From Yuukianura sp. NJ FZ-2021 (lineage: Eukaryota): a DNA stretch of 64,000 nucleotides. Made by a program: the position numbers and the translations under genes. Shown here piece after piece: positions 1,785-56,396 of the stretch. The stretch lies in the NCBI GenBank assembly GCA_046563655.1, contig CM102285.1:13144001-13208000 (forward strand). The letters are read 5' to 3'. The notes under the pieces were generated by a model. That model saw nothing but the letters and a program-made list of their open reading frames with translations. It was not told the DNA's origin and did not search any database. Every line of letters starts with the position of its first letter. Positions within the stretch are counted from its first letter, which is position 1.

Positions 1785-4361
1785 TTAGTCCTCCCTCTTT
1801 GAAACGGGTTTGAATGCAATTTTCCGGGATTTGAGTCCGGACCAAATGTGTCGTTTCCAGTACCATGTCACGGCAATAAGCAATGGAAAGATGAGCAGGG
1901 CCTAAAAAAAGAAGAAAAAAGTATACAAACAAAGGTAGGGTCACAAGGAATGATGAATTTATGAAACGACTTTCAGGGGGACTCAAAACCAGCTCTTTTG
2001 GGGGGAAAAAGAATTGAAAGCATTATTTCAATCCATTATTTTCGGGGAAAGATGTGAAAGATAAGATGGACGAGATGCTCTGACACATTTATGACATAGG
2101 GAAGACATCGGAGACGTCTTCTTGCTGCGTTATGACTCCCAGAAGTCCAAGTATCTCCTAAGGAACGAATCAACTGAACATAAATTTTGAAAAAGGAAAG
2201 TGAAAGGAAACTGGGTAACATTTTGTCAAAAGCAATTCGTAAGTTCAGTGTTTCCTCTTGAGTCAAGGACGAAACCCAAAGGAAACACTATTTTCTCAAA
2301 ATGTTGTTCGAGACAGAGTAACTTAACATAACTTCAAAAAATAAATAAAAACAACTTTTACCGGTTCGTTACGCAACTTTTCGTCTCATCTTTGTACAGA
2401 ATCTCTCGTATGATCACGAAGTAATTCAGGATGATAAGGAAGGGAAACCCACCCCATTTAATCAACTTGAAATCTCATCCGTACTTTAAGGAAAAAAAAA
2501 CTTGGAAGTTGCATTACGTTATGGTTTTCGAAAGAGGAAGTAAAAGAATTATATGGGATGGGTTGTTGTTGTTGTCATTTTATGCAATCTAAATAACGCA
2601 CGACCCAGTGAATTACATATCTGTAAAAATCTAAGCATTTTGGGTTATAAAGAACTGAAAGTCGTGTCATAAATCAAATAGTTAAAGTCGACCTTTCCCA
2701 TTTCCCTCTTAAAAGCCTTTACTAAACAACTTATTATTGGCTTTTCTGCTGAATCTTTAGCGGTTATTACCTTAACTGTCCATCTCTTCCGGGTATCATG
2801 ATGAAATTCAGAAGACCATCGCAAAAAGGTAGAGACGTCTTTGGCCATTTGGCTGGCAGTGGCAACAGTTCCATCGGCGTATTCAACAACCTTGTGTAGA
2901 AAAGAACGTCAAGTTACTTATAAGTAGTTTTAATCAAAGTATATTCTATTTGAATCTGTAAGATTTTGTACCTCGTTGAATAGAGATTGAGCCATTGATA
3001 TCGCTCCTCCAGGAAAGTACGGATTATAGTATTGCCCATCCCGAATGATAACTCCAGCCGGAGCATCAACGTAGCCCGTAAGCAAATGAAAGATGTAGTC
3101 TTCTCCGCCATGACGAGCATTGACAATTAGAGACAAATCTGGTGGAAAGGCTCCGTTGTTGGCAAAACGAGCTGCCTCTTCATTGGCATAAGGACTTGGA
3201 AAGGTATCCGATAGTTTCCCTGGACGTTGAAACATGTTTCCTTCCTCATCCGGTCCATCAGTGACCTATAATTTACTTCGACTTTTTAGCAACTTTACAA
3301 GAGTATAAGGAAATGAAATCTGTTGTATGACGTGAACGTTGCTTACCATAATTTCTTCTGCTTCGGCCTTGGCTTCGGCTTCCGTATGTGTTTCTCCAAC
3401 CAAATGACGGTAGCACATAAATCGCATTGAATGACATGCAGCACAAACTTGTTTATAGACTTGGTAACCGCGTCGCATCGATGCATGATCCAAAGAATCG
3501 AAAATTCCACCATGGCTCCAAGGTAAATGCGGAGGGTGCGCTTGTAAATCGTTAGCAGAAACAGAGTTCTCGAGGCCTACCAAAATTACTACCCCGGTCG
3601 TTCCAGCGAGTCCAATTGAGCTCCAAAACTAAATAAACAGGAAATTCTTTGATTACATTGAAAGTACTTTATAGTATAACATATATAAGGTTAACTTACG
3701 AGCTTCTTAGAAGTACTGCTCTCACTCCAGCTAAAAGTCGACAGTTGTTTCTGTAAAACAAAAAATATGCAATTTTCGGCAGGAGTAAGGCAGAGGTGGC
3801 GTGTGTTAATCTCCCATATCCCCTCCGGTATCCCATCCAATTATTGTTGTTGCATTGTTGCAAGTTAGGTTAGGTTATGTTGTGCCCCAGCGTATCCAAA
3901 TCGGGCAACATTGGAACCACAACAATGGGAGGGGATACCGGATGGGATATGGACAATTAACACACGCCACCTCTGCCTTACTCCACCCCAATTTTCAACA
4001 TTCCTTGCAGACAAGGTCCGTATACTAGTGGTGATCCAAATACTAATTGTATTCCATAACTGATTAATGGCATAGTCGGCTGCTTATGTTCTCTTTTCTC
4101 ACAGCCGCAGCGCACCGTTACTTAACATATGATCTACCGCGTCTTCGCATCTTTATCGTACCAGGTTGCCTAACTGATCGCTTATTGCTAAAATACAAAC
4201 TGCATCAATACTTCACCCAACATCAGTATCATCTGTTTCATTGCATTCCCCTAAAATTTACACCAACTAAAATTAATCAAAAATCGAACCTGAGCACGGC
4301 CCAATCCATTCCGGGATGCTTGGATAGCCTTGGTCGAAAGCCTGCTCAAAATCCCAACCAT
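1785..4361 (-). CDS. CYC1: Cytochrome c1, heme protein, mitochondrial; exons 4361-4290, 3750-3700, 3628-3347, 3265-2972, 2890-2771, 1901-1785
   Basis: Heme motif [43 protein letters not shown] and C-terminal anchor [27 protein letters not shown]. All introns are GT-AG and phase 0. N-terminal presequence-like [17 protein letters not shown]. Confidence 0.97.
3778..3988. mobile_element. MITE in CYC1 intron 1, 8-bp TSD
   Basis: TIR GGAGTAAGGCAGAGGTGGCGTGTGTTAAT is perfectly inverted at 3956-3984 and extends imperfectly inward. Flanking direct repeat CAATTTTC (3770-3777, 3989-3996). Central GTTAGGTTAGGTT. Confidence 0.9.
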
Positions 4362-5689
4362 CGTTTTAGTATCCTGAATCCAGATGATTGCCCTTAATTA
4401 ACTGAACACCTCTTTGACCTCTAACGAAGAGAAAACTAATTGGTTGGCAGGATTGATCAAATTTATTTTGGATCGGGAGAACCCTACCCGGATGGATTTC
4501 GGATCTGGATTGAATTGCACTTGCTTTTGCAAAAACTCCAATCGTTCTTATTCAGAAGTTATGCGAATTCCGAGAATTTCGGAATTTGCTATGCGAAATA
4601 TCAGAAATTAAATTGGCCATTGCAAAATTTTGAAATTACTAAGAAACAGTAGGAATTAAAAATGGCAATTCGTAGTTAAGGGACCATTTGGCAATGGCAA
4701 TTCTAAAATTTAATCTCATTCAAAATTTAGACCAATTTTAATTTTCCCGCTTTTTCTTCTTTTTTTGACTTTGTCTCATCATCAATAAACTCTTCAGATA
4801 CATGTTTTGTACAATAGTAATTTCAAACTGATAGTTTTTAAACTGATTTAATTCGGAATTCTGAATATTCTCGTATTTTTGGAGTGGCGTAAAAATTCAT
4901 AATTAAAATTGTGCGATGACAATTTTTAATCATCGACAAACGATCATCTCATCCCCATTCAAGTGTTTCATTGTCAGCCAACGTCTCCAATAAATTTTCT
5001 GCCAAGAAAAAACTATAATAATGCAATGAAGGGTCCCTGCAAATCTTACAAAGTATTTTTTTCTATTTTTCAAAAAAAAAATTTCTGAAAAGATTTATTT
5101 CTAGAAACTAAACAATACGACGAGGGGATTTGTGCGTGCATCGAATTTAAAAAAAAAAAAAGAATTTGGAAGTAAAACACACAGCTTCCAAATCCAAATT
5201 AAGTTTTTAAATTAAAAATTAAGAATTTTATTCAGTCTCCAAAATTTTTGTGCACATGCAAGTTTTCATTTCTGCTAAATTCTTAATTTGCCAGAATTTG
5301 ATTTAAATGAAACTAACCAATCTAAGGTTAATAATTTTGAACATAAAACTATTCTGTTTGCTTTAGTTACAATGTTGGAAAGAGGTCACTAAAGGATTAA
5401 CTTTTTTTTTTAGAAATGTGTTTCTTTTGTTAAATTTTAGTAAAATCAAAAATTCCACAAGTTTAGGTTATTGCCTCCATACTTTTCACTGGGTATTTTA
5501 GGTTTCTAAGAATAAAGAAGGTCAGTAGGGTTAGGGATTTGTGCTTTGCGTTTTCTTTGAAGAGAATTTTGGTCTCAGAAGAGCTTCGGGCGCCAAAAAC
5601 CTCTTATTTTATTTTTACAAAAGTGTTGGTTTTGTGCAATTTCGGTGCCTTTCCCTCCCATTCGTCTTTGTCCTTTACGAAGGGAAGGA

Positions 5690-7760
5690 CGCGTCGTCAA
5701 TTTTTGTCCATCCTGGACGCCATTGAGAGACGAGCATGAGGGCATGCCGTCTCATGGGGCTCGTCCACGCTGTAAAGCGTTTGCATCAAGCGACGATTCT
5801 TCTGGACGGCGTCGTGTCATCGCTGTAAATCCTGATTCTGCATTTTCTCCAAAGGTAACAAAATTATTTTACGATTTTCGAAATTTTGTCAAGGTTTAGT
5901 TAAATTTCAAAACTAGAATTGCTGCGCTACTAGAAAGGAACTTAAATAGTAGTTGGAAGTGGCTTTGATTTAACGTAACTTTTGTAAACTGATTTCCGTT
6001 CGAAGCTGGACGACGACGTGCCAGAATCTAGTGTATGGACGAGTTTTTTTTCCCGAACGGTGTCGGTGTGACACCGTTCCGAAAAAAAACACATGAGCAG
6101 ATTCTCTTTTGTAAATTCATAAAATCAAATTGCTTACAAAAACTGTGGTAACCCCGAAATTGTAATGACAGGATTCTAACTTTTTATTTCTTTGTTTCAG
6201 GATTGAATGAATGGCGGTTGAAATCGTCTGGAGAAGCCACCACCATCATCTCGTCCAGAATTTAATCAACCGAATGCTTGTAAATTGACTTTCATCGGTT
6301 TTCACCATGGACTTCGTCTTCGCAACTCTATTACCTTCAGTCTTTTATCGAAGTCACTTTCGTCGTCTACGTTTAGGAATTACATAAAATATGCTTTCTG
6401 TACGGAAACCATTTCGAATCTTCTCTATTCTTTAATCAAATCAATTCCTTATTCTAAGGTAGTCATCTAAGCAAGCTGACGCTGAATTGTACTACTGTCT
6501 AACACTATTTCCAGTTTTCCTAAATTTTCTTTTATGCCGTGTTTGTTTTTGTCAGGTCTGTCACGAGAGCAATCTCTAGTAATGTAAAGGTTACAACTCT
6601 GATGTAACGCTTTTATTTTGTTCAGGTCAGTTATGAGAGGCAACTCTTTTCCGATTAATGTAAGTTACATTCTTTATGTAACGGATTATTTTGTTCAGGT
6701 CAGTTATGAGAGACAACTCTTTTTCTATTAATGTAAGTTACATTCTTTATGTAACGGATTATTTTGTTCAGGTCAGTTATGAGAGACAACTCTTTTTCTA
6801 TTAATGTAAGTTACATTCTTTATGTAACGTATTATTTTGTTCAGGTCAGTTATGAGAGACAACTCTTTTCCTATTAATGTAAGTTACATTCTTTATGTAA
6901 CGTATTATTTTGTTCAGGTCAGTTATGAGAGACAACTCTTTTTCTATTAATGTAAGTTACATTCTTTATGTAACGTATTATTTTGTTCAGGTCAGTTATG
7001 AGAGACAACTCTTTTCCTATTAATGTAAGTTACATTCTTTATGTAACGTATTATTTTGTTCAGGTCAGTTATGAGAGACAACTCTTTTTCTATTAATGTA
7101 AGTTACATTCTTTATGTAACGTATTATTTTGTTCAGGTCAGTTATGAGAGACAACTCTTTTTCTATTAATGTAAGTTACATTCTTTATGTAACGTATTAT
7201 TTTGTTCAGGTCAGTTATGAGAGAAATCTCTGTTAGTGTGAGGTTACATCAATTAATGTAGCACCTTATTTTGTTCAGGTCAGTTATGAGAAAAACTCTC
7301 TACATAACGTGTTTGTTTTGTTCAGGTCAGTTATAAGAGACATTTCTTTCTCTTTTAATGCAAGTTGCATCATTTTATGTAACGTCGTATTTTGTTCAGG
7401 TCAGTTTTGAGAGAAATCTTAATTATATCAATGTAACGTCGTATTTTGGTCAGGTCCGTTTCGAGTATACTCTCGACGTAAACACAATTTAGGTGGTATT
7501 TTGTTCAGGTCAGTTTTGAGAGACATCTCTTATTAATTATTCTATAGCTGTAATGTAAGTTTCGAAATTGGTCAGGTCAGTTTTGAGGAATGCCTCTTAA
7601 ATAGGGTGTTAATTTTAGTCAGGTCAGTGTGAAGAGAATTCTTAAACGAATCAACGACGAATCGTCTTCGTTTTGATCAGGTCAGTGTACCGGGAAAATT
7701 CCCGTAACGGAGTTAATTTTAAGGCTAAAAGTTAAGTCTGCATACGAATAAACACAAGAA
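5690..7760 (+). ncRNA. Candidate spliced long non-coding transcript (or solo-LTR-like element) carrying the structured array; boundaries approximate
   Basis: No convincing ORF. Clean intron AAG|GTAACA (5855)...TTCTAAC...TTTGTTTCAG (6200), GC-rich hairpins in the 5' part, AATAAA at 7747 and ~7936. Confidence 0.4.
6556..7723 (+). repeat. Tandem array of 18 units: 8 near-identical 73-nt units (6626-7209) flanked by diverged 43-74 nt units
   Basis: TCAG|GTC junctions after 6555, 6625, 6698, 6771, 6844, 6917, 6990, 7063, 7136, 7209, 7278, 7325, 7399, 7453, 7508, 7575, 7622 and 7680. Confidence 0.97.
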
Positions 7761-8631
7761 AAGAGATTTAGATGTTTCAATCTAAATCAACTTAAGATAT
7801 CATAGTTATCAAATGTTTTTAATTGTTTAGTTTTAATGTTAATTTTGCAATTAGTCTATTCGAAATCTTCCTGAAGATCCTTGATTAAAATTGGTTCTAT
7901 GAGGCAAATCTAAAATTTCCATAATTCTTTCTCTCAATAAAATTAAATGATTCATTTCAAAAATGGTTAAAAGTATTGTATAACGATTATGGCAATTAGT
8001 GAAAGTTCCCAATGAGGCTATCAAATCGTTTTGCGAACTTAATGTACCTACATGCTACAGAACTCCAGCTACCTTAAGTTCAACTACACAGTGCCACTGG
8101 CGAATCGCCACACTTTCATTAACATTCGAAAGATTAAAATCCGAACCTACATGCATTTTGTTCTGCAAATAATTTGTCATTTTTGCAATGAAATCGACTC
8201 TCCAGGAAAATGAAGTGGAGAAAGCACGAATTTAGTTTGGAGATTGAACGCTTGCATTTAAAAAAAAGTCTGTTAGAAAACAAAAATCAGAGTGCTTTGA
8301 GGTCAAAGGTCAGGATAAGTCCGACTTCTTTGTTCACTGGTTTTTTATTAGCAAAATTAAAATGTAGAATCTCGATAAAATTATATCATAAATAATAAAT
8401 AATTAAATTTAGTCGTAAATAACGTTCCGTAATTTTCATCCATGATCCAATACACGATGAGCAGCGACCTCCAAATTTAATTTTCATAATGACATCTTTT
8501 GGTAGCCATGTCCATGTTCAAGTTCATATATGCACCATACTGACACTAAAACAAAAGATAATTAATCATCATGAATTACTTCAACAATAATTTTTCATAT
8601 TCAAAAAAGTAAAAAGTGTATTCACAGTTGA

Positions 8632-11600
8632 TTACTTTTCTCGTTTCGTAGAAATGGAAGGGTTTCCCACTGGTTCGGGAGACTGCGGACCTGGAACAAT
8701 TTAACGAATTTTGGTTTAGAATTTCGTTTTGTTAAAACAAATCTTTTTGTAAATTAAAAACTTACTGGAATCAGATGAAGATGAAGGTGACAACTGGCTG
8801 TGACTGCTAGCAGAAGAATCGGCCAGTCGTGACTTCAGTTCTCGTTCGCGATACATCCGAGCTGTTTGCGAATACAGTAGTTCCTCTTGAACCAGTTTCC
8901 GAGCTTCTCGTTCCCTCTTGAGGTCAATGTTAATTCGGAAATTGCTGTCTTCCAATAGCGCCAACTTTTGTTCCAAATCTTTCTTGTCGTAAATCGGACT
9001 CTTCAGTGGAGTTCCACCGAGCGCCATTGATAATTCCATGTTATGTTTCAGTACACTGGACAACTTCAGCTGGAGTTCATCTCGCTCTTCCAGTAACTGA
9101 AAACAGTCATAAAGAAAGCAATAATAAATATCAATTTTCCTTCTTTCTTTTAACTTTCAATCTTCTTTTAAATAAAAATTCAAAACTTACCCTCGTAATT
9201 TCTACTGTAAGTTGGACACAACGTTTGTCTCGTTCATCAAGAGCGTAAATGAGACGCAGAAGCTCTTCCTGGATTTTCATGACCTTTGGATGAACGCCAG
9301 GATCTTTAGTAGCCGAATTGACCAGCATTGTGATTTCTTCCTGATATCGCTGATTCTCCATTTCCAGTCGCTTGATCCAATTTTTAAGAACAAAAGACTC
9401 TTCGTACGCTTTCATCTCCGAATTTTCAATTTCCGTTATCTTCGACTGCAGAAGTTCCATTTTTCGCTCCTTTTTGGCAATTTCGTCCTTCAGAGCTTCA
9501 ATCTCTTCTTTCAGCTTGGAAGCTTGTTGTTGTCCTTCTTGCGCTGGCAAAGTTTCAATTTTTACCAGCTCAGCATGCCTTAAAGCTTCTTCAACTTGTA
9601 TGGCCTTGGCTTCCAGCTCTGCTGTCAGTTTCTTAAATGCATCGACTTCAGATTTTAACCACGTCGCTTCCAGTTCAAGTTGTTCCTTAGCCTTAACTTC
9701 CCGTTCGAGCTCATGAATTTTACTTTGGAGTTCATCTGTAACCGTTTCAAGTTTAGATGAAAGTAGAGAGTTCTTCTCCAGCAGTTGATTCGTTTGATCC
9801 GACGCTGCTTTCAAAGAATTTTCGACGTTTAGCAGCTCTTCACATTTCGACGCAAGTTGTTGCTGGAGCATCAAGCATTCCGATTCGCGCAGTATTTCTT
9901 CTTCCTTGAGCTTATTTTGATACTCCTCCCGAGCCGTGTCCTTCGTATTCTTCCAAAGGTTCATCAGTCGCACTTTCTCACTGCGTAGGTGAACAGCTTC
10001 TTGCTTATAAGTTTCTGTTTGAATCTTCATATTGGTCAATTGTGTCCCCAGGTCACTGACCTCTTGATTCCTGAGATGATTGACCCGCGAGAGTCCTTCA
10101 ACTGCAGTGGAAATACTCTCTTCCTGAACGCTAAGCTTATTCAGAAGTTCTTGGATTTGATCTTCACTGGTGTTCAGCTGGACCCGATAGGATTCCTTCT
10201 CTTGCGTCAATTTTTCAATTTCGGTCGAACTAATTGATAAGTAATTCTGAATTGATTCAATTTGTTCTTTAGCCAAGGCGTTAAGCTCTTCTTGTTCCTG
10301 CCTGGTCACCTCACGCTCATGAGCCATAGTATCCAGTTCACTTTCAAGACGACTTATGCATTCGCTCTTGCTGTTGATGACTCCAGTGAGGTCAAGCTCC
10401 ATCTTTTCTTTGGTGTCAACATAAGACTGATAAGCAGCCATGAGCTGCTGAATTTCAAGGTTCTTGGCATGTACAGTTTCATTAATTTCGGTGGTTTTCG
10501 TTTCGACGCATGTCTGGATTTCCTGGAGCTCCGCTCGAAGATCTTGCAATTCTTCGTCTTTCTGATTTAAAAGGATTTCTAGCGATGATAATTTGGAAGT
10601 AGCCTGTTCTAAAGCGTTTTGGCTTTGAATTTCTTGCAATGATAGCCGTGTATTTAAATCTTCAAGGGCGTTACTCTCCTGTCGGAATGCAATTTCATCA
10701 GCTTCGCGTCTCCTGTGAAGGGTATCCAATTCAGCTTCCTTCCGCTGCAGCTCCGTTTCTTGCAATGAAATTTGTTTACGCAATTCTTCTACAGTTTCTG
10801 CATGCTTCTCCATTTCTGTGTGTTTGAAGCTGAGGTTGGACGATAAATATTCCGTATGCTTTTGATGTTCCTGAAGATCAGTTTCATAAACAAGAAGTGT
10901 GTTTCGGAGAGACTTTATTTCTTCCTCCATTTCTTGCAATTTTATTTCCTGAGGCAGTCTGGCACGAAGATGTTGCAGTTCTTGTTCCTTGTCGCGTAAA
11001 TCGTATGCATGAGAGGTGATTTCAATACGAAAATCTTCTAGCGTTTTATCCTTTTCGACCAATTCGTTTTCAAGCATGGCGATTTTGGAGACTAGATCGG
11101 AATTGCGGTCCTCGGCGGCGTCCAGGCGCTGACTCTGCTTCTCGAAGTTTTGCTTCCTCAATTCCTCAATGCAGCGATTCTGAAGGGTGACAAATTGACT
11201 GTGAGAGGCGTCGGGTGATGATGAAGGGGGACAATCTGTTTCGTCAGTTTCGGTATACTTGTCTAATTTGGGAATATAAATTGGATCGGTTTCGGAGTCT
11301 ACCATGTCAGCGATTTTTAATACATTTCTGGACAAATCAGCGACCGATGACGATTTTTCTTCATTCTTCGTTTCGCTAAGTTTTAGTTCCTCTGGCGCTG
11401 TTGTTGCAGTCGTCTTATAACGCTCTTGGTCTTCCAGTATTAGCTGTACGTCCTCGAGTTCTTTAACTTCCTGCGCAAGCATCTTCTTATAATTCTCTTC
11501 ATGACCTTTCAGCATTAGCTGTACGTCCTCCAGTTCTTTAACTTTCTGCGCAAGCATTTCTTCATAATCATTATGTTTTGACTGAAGTTCCTTCATTGCA

Positions 11601-12912
11601 GCTTTTGATGCTGTGGCGTCTTTGACTGCTGCTTTGGCGGCTATTTGGTATTTTTTCGCTTCACGTTCAACTTTTTCGAGTTGTTTGGCTTTTAGGTTCA
11701 CTTGTTCCTCAAATTCATCGCATCTTCTTTGAATCTCCATCAAGTCTTCATCTTTTGACAAAAGTTCGTCCTTGAAACGCTCTAATTCTTCTTTGAGTTG
11801 TTGATTATCAGTAGATTCTACTTCGCGAAGTTTGTACTCTTCAAATTCGGCTTGGAGTTTTTCATAATCCCGCGTAACCATTTGATATCCACCGATGATC
11901 TCGCTTTGCTGATCTTGCAGTTCTTTCAATTCAGCCTGTGCCTCAGCCAAAGCTCGAGCCATTCCTTCTCCGTCTTGTTCCAAACTATGAAATTGAGTCG
12001 GAAGACATTTTAGTAGATTTAGTTTAGTCTCGAGCAGCGATTCACCAGCATCAGTTCCGCTGCCACTATCATCTGGAGGTGCTGCAGGAAGATAAGTTTT
12101 AAAATGCGCAAGGAGGTCATCCAACACAAGGTTGACTTCTTCCATTTGTTCGTCTTTGGCGACAATGTTTACTTTCATGGCCTTCAAATCCGAGGATAGG
12201 GATGAGATTGATAAAGATTCTACGTTCTTCTCCAGAAGAATTGTTTCTAACTGATGCTTGACCTCTTTGCACTCTTCCTCTTTTTCGGACAGCGATTTCC
12301 GAGCGATAGCCAACTGCTCATTCAGGGAATTTACTTGCTCCTCAAGCTCAAAATCTTTCCCGCTTTGGGATGATGCTTTACTACTTGAGCTTTCCATTTC
12401 ACATGGCTTGATTTTTACAAACTTTTCGTCCTCGACGGCAGATTCTTCTGAACCGGTTGATAGGCTCATGAGTGAGATAGGCACTGCCGGGTGACCCTGA
12501 CTAGAACGAACGCTTGAAGTTTCGGCTGAATTGTCTTCATCTCCATGTCCAGTCGACTTGCCGTGGGAGGCTATAATTCATAAAAGTTGCATTACGTGTT
12601 TCGGTTGAAATGGAGCGAGAGAATGGAGTGAGAAGCTTTGTAACAGCCAAACAATGCATACCTTTTGAACGAGCTAATAGACTCATCAGACGTAACTTTT
12701 CAGCTTGCAAGGCTATATTCTCTTCACGAAGTTCTTCGAGGTCAAGGTCAACGTTTGGTGTGCTCTGTTAGAATACCATAAAACATAAGTTTGTAGTGTA
12801 CTAACTCTTTGACTCATCGCTTCATTCATCAGCGTTTCCTTACTTCGTGCAGAGGCTGAGGTTCATCAGGTGATAATTCAATGTCTTCCATAGCACCAAC
12901 CAGATCGTCCAT
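8632..12912 (-). CDS. Long coiled-coil golgin-like protein, lava lamp-like; exons 12912-12844, 12764-12662, 12570-9191, 9096-8766, 8690-8632
   Basis: 1117-aa E/K/Q/L-rich heptad ORF extended by frame-consistent GT-AG exons. An in-frame stop lies upstream of ATG 12912. The C-terminal segment LIYALDERDKRCVQLTVEITRLLEERDELQLKLS resembles the insect lava lamp C-terminal motif as I recall it. Likely 5' UTR exons extend to ~13500. Confidence 0.75.
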
Positions 12913-13724
12913 CACAGCAAGACCGTCTTTGGTCCTGAGCTAGCTACTCCCGATATGGAAAAACAACTGGAACACGGACCCTGAATTGTTCGACGCTGCT
13001 GGATCAGAAATTCACCACCACCACCACCTGTAATTAGCAATTCAAACAGCAAAATCATAACCAATACCAAGAACTGAAAAACCGATCTACATTATGCTTG
13101 AATATTTCGTTTACCAGACTGTTGTGCAAAACACCGAGCAGCTCCACTATCGCGTCAGTGTTCCAGTTTCCCTTTCCAGATGGCAAATAGGTTGGATCTA
13201 AATTAAAACAAAATTAAATCATGGAATGTAAAATTTCGAAAGAAAGAGCAATTCAATTGATTTGAGTGACACTGACAACATTTTTTGTTCTTTTAGGTAA
13301 TAAATTATTTTCTCGCATTTACCGCCATATTTATTTTGCAGTCTCAATTAAAGAACATCAAAATCGCAATAAAGAAGGCAGTTTAGTCAATTAAAAAAAC
13401 TACCTCAGTTAAGTGCCCCCTTTGTGTCGTCGCCTGTCAGACTTATCAACCAAATCAGTTTATAATTAGCTAACTACAATCATAACAGCTGTTCAAGTCC
13501 CGTTAATCGTTCAGTTAATCTTTTGTTGTTGTTTTTCTTTAATTTAAATTTGTTGACATTAGTGTTGAGGAAAGACGGAGTTGCATTTGTTGTGACCACC
13601 AGCGCCTGCCTGAATAGCAACAGGAATAATTCAGCACCCCACTTTTCGGAACGTAAGTTACCTACACTGTAGTACGTTAGTTAGGGAGTACCAAAAAATT
13701 TATTCTGGGATGAGGAATTGCTAA

Positions 13725-14610
13725 AGGCCTGTTTATACCGGACCACTGGATGGATTTTCCTTCCACTGGACTGCAATCCAGTCGTTCACACCAGATTTAA
13801 TCCGTCTGGATGGATCATCCAGAGAAAGTTGGGGTGGATTTTTTTTCCACTGGACTGGATTTCCATCGTTCACACCGAAAAATCCGTCCATGGAAATTTT
13901 TTCCACTGGATTTTCTTGTAATGTTGAGAGATGGGAGAAACGATCCAGACCAAAAGTTCACTCAGTTCAACTTTTGGTCTGGATTGATCATCAAATTTGC
14001 AGTGTGCCCCAATCACACATGGGAACTTTTGAGACAATAAGCTCGAATGACGAAACTAATCTCAAAAGTACAGTTTTTGGAATGTTAATTACTTTTTTAA
14101 ATAATTAGTCAAAGTAAATAGGTTGAATTACGCCTAACAACGTATCAACATTTAATTTAACCTACTAATACGAGGTTAGCGCTAACCTGAGAGTAACAAT
14201 TAATCTGTCATGTGCAAGTATTGCTAGTCCTTGTATGTATACTGAAAAAAATGTTCTGGTATAATTCGTATCATACGTTCTCTGAATCTTCAATATCTCC
14301 TGAGTCTTCCATTGTTAACTATAATTAGTTATTTTGATGTTCTCAGCTGTTGAAAACAGCAATTAACTCTTTGTTGACACATTTCAACTTTGAATGGAAA
14401 GGCAGGCGCCTTTCTGAAATCCAGGGTGGAAAAACAGCTTTCATACCGCGTCCCTGGATTTTTTTTCCACTGGATGGAAAATCCATCCATGGAAAAAAAA
14501 TCCACCCATCACTTTCCCCAAAATCTGGTATGAACGAGACAAATTTTTTCCACTGGACTGGACGTCCAGTGGAAGGAAAATCCATCCAGAGCTCCGGTAT
14601 AAACGGCCCT
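13725..14610. mobile_element. Non-autonomous PIF/Harbinger-like element (886 bp), TAA TSD
   Basis: Left AGGCCTGTTTATACCGGACCACTGGATGGATTTTCCTTCCACTGGAC vs right GTCCAGTGGAAGGAAAATCCATCCAGAGCTCCGGTATAAACGGCCCT. TAA on both sides (13722-24, 14611-13). Repeated subterminal TTTTCCACTGGA. No transposase ORF. Confidence 0.85.
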
Positions 14611-15197
14611 TAAGTCTCAGGACTCAGGAATACCTTCTTCTTGGTGAAAATATTTTCATGAGATAATTTTGCTACTTCAACCATAATTTGAATTGAAATT
14701 GGTGACAATTTTCGCGCCAAAACACTGACGATCTTTGTCTCATTCGGGAATTCCATTGGCGAGGCGCGAAATTGTATTTGATTTTCATATTTTGAAATCT
14801 CACAAAAATTAAAACAAAACAAACAAATAAAAATAAAATCATAAAGTTCTCTTCTTTTCAACTTCAACCGTTGAATTGAAGTTTCAACAAATATCAAAAT
14901 ACATAAATCGACGGTTGATTTTTAGACAATGGGTGTTTGACATTGTTGCATCCGAGTGTTTGTTTTGTTCAGGCGATTAGTCTGAAAGTTGAATGTCATT
15001 GACTGTACGGGACTCGTTGAGTTTTTCAGGTTGAAGTTCATAGGATAGACGTTTTTTTTTAATCGTGAGTCGTCGCCATCATACCAGCAGAAGAAGAAGG
15101 AACGTCAACGTTATTCAGGAATGCTGTTTAGTGACAGGAAGAGGAAGACGACACAAACTGTCAGCTGAACTCCGCTACTGTGACTGCAGTAATCACG

Positions 15198-30222: not shown

Positions 30223-32486
<2,264 letters not shown>

Positions 32487-56237: not shown

Positions 56238-56396
56238 TTTCTTTTGGAGAACATTTGATTAGATTTTTAGAACAAGATTCTTTTTCCAAAAAAATTGAAT
56301 TCAATTCTGGTTTTCTTTTGGAGAACATTTGATTAGATTTTTAGAACAAGATTCTTTTTCCAAAAAAATTGAATTCAATTCTGGTTTTCTTGGAGA
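56238..56396. repeat. Recent tandem duplication, 74-bp period, ~2.1 copies
   Basis: TTTCTTTTGGAGAACATTTGATTAG...AATTCTGGT repeated at 56238 and 56312. Confidence 0.92.

Follow-up and report, generated by a model that had tools for sequence, protein, structure and literature searches.

What is to be made of a run of eighteen short units, each of which opens and closes as an intron does and none of which is separated from the next by an exon? The question is raised by a locus of Yuukianura sp. NJ FZ-2021, located in a 64,000-nt stretch of contig CM102285.1 (GCA_046563655.1; positions 13,144,001 to 13,208,000 of the forward strand). This stretch is referred to here as the window, and all coordinates are counted from its first letter. 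The array occupies ~1.2 kb of the + strand. Our tentative answer, which may well be right and which we would stop short of calling probable, is that a single short spliceosomal intron has been amplified in tandem within a small, apparently non-coding gene on that strand.

The 18 back-to-back units claimed by an earlier note on this DNA are borne out boundary by boundary. Units 1-9 start at 6556, 6626, 6699, 6772, 6845, 6918, 6991, 7064 and 7137, and units 10-18 at 7210, 7279, 7326, 7400, 7454, 7509, 7576, 7623 and 7681, with the array ending at 7723. The corresponding lengths, in order, are 70, 73 (eight times), 69, 47, 74, 54, 55, 67, 47, 58 and 43 nt. The length drift reported for the diverged units thus stands, and their lower limit is corrected from 47 to 43 nt. 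As the same note had described, the typical start is GTCAGT (16 of the 18 units), the variants being GTCTGT in unit 1 and GTCCGT in unit 14. Each of the 18 units begins with GT and closes with AG, and TCAG|GT occurs at the entry junction and at each of the 17 internal junctions, while the array exits with TTTTAAG|GC. Tandem Repeats Finder returns a period of 73 nt over 6602-7299 (9.6 copies, 94% matches), and the near identity of units 3-9 suggests that amplification was recent. The remnant of a further, decayed unit precedes the array at 6510-6555, where CCAGTTTT stands in place of the expected GTCAGTTTT; its alignment to unit 11 gives z = 4.5, and none of 500 shuffles aligned as well. This remnant sits within a GT...AG interval downstream of exon-like sequence.

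With up to one mismatch, TCAGGTCAGT matches 19 times in the window, where 3.58 matches are expected from shuffling and none of 100 shuffles reached 19; 18 of the matches fall on the + strand, at 6552-7686. Outside the array, YAG|GTNAGT is found at only two sites on either strand of the 64 kb. One of these, a ratchet-like site at 30993 on the - strand, was inspected and rejected as the start of a coding exon. The hexamer GTCAGT occurs 15 times on the + strand of the window outside the array, and an nhmmer profile of the junction (E up to 10) detected no further copies of the array in the window.

Each unit has a start resembling a donor, followed in the proper order and at the proper spacing by a branch-like TAAC (in most units), a T-rich tract and a terminal CAG. 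Of the 18 units, 13 have the TAAC at a distance of 16-18 nt from their end and two others have a TAAT at 22 nt, in keeping with the 15-22 nt noted previously; a TRAY within 15-40 nt of the AG is therefore present in 15 units and absent from units 14, 16 and 17. Upstream of the junction the T residues at -8 and -7 are invariant, and the copies close with a U-rich tract and CAG. The composite CAG|GTCAGT agrees at eight of nine positions with the general donor consensus.

Seven introns could be placed confidently elsewhere in the window, three in the cytochrome c1 gene, CYC1 (which has a Pfam match), and four in a supervillin-like gene. Those of CYC1 are 71, 81 and 81 nt long, confirming the 71-81 nt with which the earlier note had likened the core, and start with GTAAGT, GTAAGC and GTACAA. 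Those of the supervillin-like gene are 236, 90, 68 and 66 nt long and start with GTATGT, GTGAGT, GTAAAA and GTACCA. Another four introns, chosen by eye among alternatives, start with GTAAGT, GTAATG, GTACTT and GTAGAT. The 73-nt length of the core falls inside the 66-90 nt range of six of the seven placed introns, and 12 of the 18 units measure 67-74 nt (local placed introns 66-236 nt, n = 7). Because halves resembling a 3′ and a 5′ splice site abut, a branch-like motif is suitably spaced and the unit has the length of a local intron, involvement of the splicing machinery is the most economical explanation of this anatomy.

If the array is indeed a tandemly amplified intron, excision of any copy would restore the same AG|GU junction. 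As the copies abut without an exon between them, the array would be removable unit by unit in the 5′ to 3′ direction, or in blocks, and since AG|GU would be recreated at each excision the mature RNA would be identical at any copy number. Were removal sequential and co-transcriptional, every donor would be needed, which would explain why conservation extends to each copy. In the gene model proposed, exon 1 ends at 5854 and exon 2 occupies 6201-6458; an intron (6459-6555) leads into the array, which is followed by a terminal exon from 7724. The first duplication would probably have relied on AG|G as a microhomology between the two intron ends, and later copies would have been added by unequal exchange. 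Such an origin would mirror, in reverse, microhomology-mediated intron loss (PMC3698931). If the units are spliced, the locus would offer a test of intron multiplication by exact tandem duplication via end microhomology. Introns born by tandem duplication of an AGGT segment are described in two reports (PMC3265369, PMC4974935), where, as is proposed here, a unit bounded by AG|GT is itself spliceable and splicing hides the duplication. The cases known are, however, single duplications within coding exons, of which one copy stays in the mRNA, whereas the present array has 18 copies, a unit that is intron-like throughout, no exon copy and a host that is seemingly non-coding.

Conservation along the units is markedly uneven. 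The comparison was made without gaps on the 11 junctions of the diverged set (units 1, 2 and 10-18). Twelve positions, -8, -7, -4 to -1, +1 to +3, +5, +6 and +12, are invariant in all 11 junctions, and identity falls to between one and eight of the 11 beyond about -14 and +22. The previous observation that interiors drift while TCAG|GTC survives is thus upheld. As anchoring on the junction might bias an ungapped comparison, words were also counted without alignment; over 7269-7723 every word recurring at least four times is a junction word, with TCAGGTCAGT recurring seven times.

A second conserved feature lies just downstream of the junction, where a hairpin of 4-6 bp at approximately +9 to +24 is possible in every unit. 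The mean minimum free energy of the segment from +7 to +27 is -4.1 kcal/mol in the 11 diverged units, compared with -0.89 for a background of random 21-nt windows from the same 64 kb, resampled in sets of 11. None of 100,000 resamples was as low, and the same test restricted to the six most diverged units gave P = 1e-5. In six of the 11 diverged units no other 21-nt window is more stable than the hairpin; units 1, 2 and 10 have a second hairpin that alone surpasses it, and the hairpin of units 12 and 17 is weak. The stems vary between units (GAGAG/CUCUU, UCGAG/CUCGA, GAGG/CCUC and CGGGA/UCCCG) with pairing kept. RNAalifold predicted no pairs from an ungapped alignment of 12 unit starts; as the register of the stem moves by 1-2 nt between units, the energy tests were used instead. 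The + strand folds better than the - strand over both the hairpin windows (-51.9 versus -41.8 kcal/mol) and the whole distinct units (-136.2 versus -114.0 kcal/mol), which lends modest support to a + strand RNA. The compensatory changes support the view that selection acts on a single-stranded nucleic acid of + sense.

These features bear directly on the notion that the array operates as DNA, providing 18 sites for a transcription factor or an insulator protein. AGGTCA, a candidate half-site of nuclear receptors, is found at 16 of the 18 junctions, and the junction also contains TCAGTT, a candidate initiator-like word of arthropods. The spacing is regular (43-74 bp) and the array is located between convergent and divergent genes, as might suit a regulatory element. 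Nevertheless, the compensatory hairpin changes and the asymmetry of folding between strands indicate a single-stranded molecule, and a conserved block of ~28 nt together with a hairpin exceeds the site of one factor. We consider a DNA-level element quite improbable.

Less probable still, and to be regarded as highly unlikely, is a polycistronic precursor of small RNAs that matures by a route other than splicing, whether miRNA-like, snoRNA-like or ribozyme-processed. The units are short, repeated and structured, as such a precursor would be. Against this, a search of 5000-9000 with Rfam at E up to 10 placed nothing within the array and gave only two chance-level snoRNA matches outside it, ARAGORN reported no tRNA, and no C/D, H/ACA or hammerhead core was apparent by eye. 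Mirtrons were considered and rejected, as the minimum-free-energy fold of units 2-9, with stems of 4-7 bp, leaves the first and last bases unpaired and the unit ends are therefore not mirtron-like.

The sequence could instead be a neutral minisatellite derived from a duplicated intron or intergenic segment, without function and with its junction likeness simply inherited. Near-identical core units with 94% matches are what a minisatellite would present, as is a copy number that apparently differs between organisms. Contigs of runs X1-X4 over 5400-8400 (labelled ‘DNA?’) cover the flanks at single-copy depth, and none spans the array. In organism B (run X4), two cyclic contigs of 103 nt, the size to which a 73-nt cycle would collapse at k = 31, have a depth of ~11.5 over a baseline of 6-8; this suggests, as a rough estimate, about three core copies where the window has eight 73-nt core units. 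Natural variants that hit donor hexamers, described below, and the leftmost unit, which has lost its junction, would likewise suit a repeat free of constraint.

So would the outcome of the search for relatives. The earlier note had proposed that similar arrays be sought in the genome and in related species. A scan of metagenomes, in which two junction words had to lie 35-65 nt apart, gave 59 loci, none of which resembles the array. Motif positions were checked in all 59 loci, 24 were inspected closely and one (L021) in full; they were rejected as CRISPR arrays, unrelated mini- or microsatellites and a duplicated coding exon. Among them, the CRISPR-like arrays L026/L057, L033, L046 and L053 have a period of ~72 nt and a repeat containing TTCAGGTCAGTT, the same 12-mer as the junction, and this match is coincidental. 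What a neutral minisatellite does not predict is 12 positions invariant in every diverged junction of units whose interiors vary and whose lengths run from 43 to 74 nt, nor a hairpin kept with differing stems. We regard a neutral minisatellite as unlikely; it, the DNA array and the small-RNA precursor all explain the retained hairpin and the unevenness of conservation less well.

Several observations weigh against the tandemly amplified intron itself. Position +3 is C in all 18 units and in none of the seven confidently placed local introns, where, as in the four placed by eye, it is A or G; a C that never drifts to A or G is unexpected of a site selected only for pairing with U1. The T at -4 is likewise invariant in the array, and real acceptors of the window vary there. 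Six units measure 43-58 nt, less than any of the seven placed introns, the smallest of which has 66 nt. In units 1-10 and 12 the UAAC lies within the 3′ arm of the second hairpin, which would hinder binding of U2. Natural variants also reach the donors. Among the variants listed, there are at least six differences in 7195-7723, with a further 117 substitutions and 44 indels over 5400-8400, and donor hexamers are affected by two of the six. One, 7329 A>G, is seen in organism B; the other, 7510 T>G, replaces a GT by GG, and run X3 shows no other allele at this position. Finally, the acceptors would be redundant in a ladder of this kind, so that erasure of the array from the mature RNA does not by itself explain their conservation. 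The conservation of the hairpin is equally unexplained by erasure alone. The earlier proposal of a host transcript built from consecutive introns is thus partly supported, namely by the anatomy of the units, the length of the core, a plausible non-coding host upstream and a poly(A) signal downstream, and is opposed by the C at +3, the T at -4, the lack of TT at -5/-6 and the donor variants.

The C at +3, the T at -4, the hairpin and the redundant acceptors keep alive the chief rival reading, namely that the array is an unspliced repeat module of a non-coding RNA. Its 18 composite motifs, each resembling a 3′ and a 5′ splice site and accompanied by a hairpin, might serve as a multivalent platform or sink for U1 snRNP and U2AF, or for another sequence-specific RNA-binding protein, by analogy with the arrays of hsr-omega or of PNCTR and PTBP1. 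Invariance of the C at +3 and the T at -4 goes beyond what splicing needs, and one continuous conserved block from about -13 to +15, together with the conserved hairpin, suits a single binding module. The layout of unique exons, 3′ tandem repeats and a poly(A) signal is that of hsr-omega (10.1101/695486). The Drosophila gene is described as having unique 5′ exons followed by locus-specific, fast-diverging tandem repeats in which the 5′ splice site-like motif ATAGGTAGG is kept, and binding of hnRNP is reported. Both loci would combine a 3′ locus-specific tandem repeat in a non-coding gene, putative here, with a short motif that is kept while the rest diverges. The repeat units of hsr-omega, however, are reported to measure 220-278 bp in a block of >5 kb (10.1101/695486), compared with units of 43-74 nt in a 1.2-kb block here, and the present motif includes an acceptor, a branch-like element and a hairpin as well. 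With up to one mismatch the hsr-omega nonamer has six matches in the window, none of them in the array. Moreover, a platform has no need of complete and correctly spaced intron signals, such as the UAAC at 16-18 nt described above, nor of a unit length equal to the size of local introns. We consider such a platform possible and on balance doubtful. If the array is retained in the RNA, it would constitute a compact, repeat-based scaffold of splice-site mimics in a little-studied animal lineage.

To return to a spliced array, it is also conceivable, though unlikely, that the copies are more than the passive outcome of amplification. The 18 zero-exon mini-introns, with one decayed copy beside them, may form a ladder whose members are individually maintained, with repeated splicing itself, or the ~18 hairpin-bearing intron RNAs that it releases, as the product. 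Such a ladder could furnish many short structured RNAs, act as a device for spliceosome loading or delay, or provide a regulated sink for U1 and U2AF. Recursive splicing would then operate on introns of minimal size, and the ladder would have arisen when an intron was exactly duplicated in tandem.

A close comparison is with the ratchet points of Drosophila, zero-nucleotide AG|GT sites at which splicing regenerates a donor and which have flanks better conserved than the intron around them (10.1101/006163). The juxtaposition of AG and GT at the entry and the 17 internal junctions is shared with these sites. In that report the ratchet-point segments extend over 2,596-63,580 bp and TT occupies -5/-6 at 196 of 197 sites (10.1101/006163). 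The segments of the array, in contrast, are 43-74 nt long and in tandem, rather than kilobase-sized within a very long intron, TT at -5/-6 occurs at none of its 18 junctions, where -6 is mostly G, and its +3 is C.

If spliced, the array would be a natural series of minimal introns without exons between them, in which intron definition could be probed at the smallest sizes and recursive splicing tested where no long intron is involved. It would then also be a new form both of recursive splicing and of duplication-born introns. In the full-text literature searched, whose coverage excludes subscription journals, no account of short introns abutting in an array was found. When the junction 10-mers were searched in the literature, none of the matches listed apparently concerned splicing or repeat arrays.

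Other reiterated splice signals are known. An alternative exon of C. elegans uaf-1 contains about ten matches to UUUUCAG/R, which presumably serve to bind a splicing factor and not as splice sites. The reiteration of a splice-site consensus is common to both; the uaf-1 exon, however, lies in the gene of a splicing factor and has acceptor motifs only, without donor or hairpin. The introns that hold SNORD115 and SNORD116 are separated by short exons. In a report on SNHG14, these introns are repeated in tandem by the dozen in a non-coding host, each with a box C/D snoRNA (PMC11608373). The tandem introns and the non-coding host resemble the proposed arrangement here, in which, by contrast, exons have zero length and no snoRNA-like match is present in the array. 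The 37-bp minisatellite of intron 7 of human F7 differs in that only donor sites are described for it (PMC1557585) and its repeats are confined to one ordinary intron.

The features of the array and of its putative host are collected in the table.

Table. Features of the array and of the putative host gene; host exons and introns are predicted from sequence
Feature	Position	Strand	Remarks
Array of 18 head-to-tail, abutting intron-like units	6556..7723	+	Entry and 17 internal junctions read TCAG|GTC[A/T/C]GT
Core of eight 73-nt units (units 2-9)	6626..7209	+	Tandem Repeats Finder and reading of the units
Unit 1, 70 nt, diverged	6556..6625	+	GTCTGT start
Units 10-18, 43-74 nt	7210..7723	+	Divergence grows along the array; only junction k-mers recur, TCAGGTCAGT seven times
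Decayed leftmost unit	6510..6555	+	AG|GT junction lost; 3′ part of putative intron 6459-6555; alignment to unit 11
Putative exon 1, start uncertain	5520..5854	+	GC 0.43-0.45; without protein homologue; GGTCAGTA at 5520-5527
Putative intron 1	5855..6200	+	AAAG|GTAACA ... TTTGTTTCAG; read from sequence; holds the 6045-6089 inverted repeat
Putative exon 2 of the non-coding host	6201..6458	+	GC 0.39; 79-codon open frame, no Met, no true homologue
Putative 97-nt intron leading into the array	6459..6555	+	AAG|GTAGTC ... TTTTTGTCAG; read from sequence, inferred
Putative short terminal exon	7724..7770	+	AATAAA at 7747-7752; 3′ end inferred from sequence

The predicted host is drawn from candidate splice sites of the + strand at 5854/5855 (AAAG|GTAACA), 6200/6201 (TTTCAG|G) and 6458/6459 (TAAG|GTAGTC), and from an AATAAA that starts 24 nt past the last AG of the array. 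The GC content of 5450-6500 is 0.39-0.45, as opposed to 0.24-0.31 in the preceding intergenic DNA. No open reading frame (ORF) of at least 70 aa overlaps 6471-8715 on either strand, and the open frames upstream have neither a Pfam match nor a true homologue. Two protein matches to an upstream frame were rejected, the proteins being repeat proteins that sum weak matches. The frame of exon 2, stop-free over its 79 codons, has two in-frame TGA codons just upstream, and with the array removed it would continue for three more codons into the terminal exon (7724-7735) before a TAA; it is probably non-coding. The folding of the host exons is unremarkable (z = -1.5 and -1.2).

Two minor observations concern the 5′ part of this host. 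The octamer GGTCAGTA near the beginning of the GC-richer block is the 3′ half of the junction motif and is preceded by AAG; a donor, an initiator-like start and a chance occurrence are all conceivable. The inverted repeat at 6045-6089 consists of 20 bp, 90% complementary, with a 5-nt loop and with a T-run and an A-run at its flanks. It is contained in a 208-bp segment (5955-6162) in place of which other haplotypes, in runs X1-X3, have 19 different letters. The segment would seem to be a small polymorphic insertion, perhaps a MITE-like element, within putative intron 1.

The surrounding genes include CYC1, on the - strand at ~2645-3700, and a long coiled-coil ORF, also on the - strand, at 9131-12577. 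Just upstream of the CYC1 start, an inverted repeat at 3759-4007 has two arms of 103 nt, 81% complementary and 43 nt apart. The supervillin-like gene of the window is 41-44% identical to beetle and springtail proteins, which suggests that the animal is of an arthropod-like lineage. A perfect tandem duplication at 56238-56391 has a 74-nt unit in 2.1 copies (100% match) and bears no sequence relation to the array. At 13685-14666, overlapping ORFs on both strands have recurring peptide words in common, FFPLD and FHWTG among them, which suggests a dispersed or tandem repeat.

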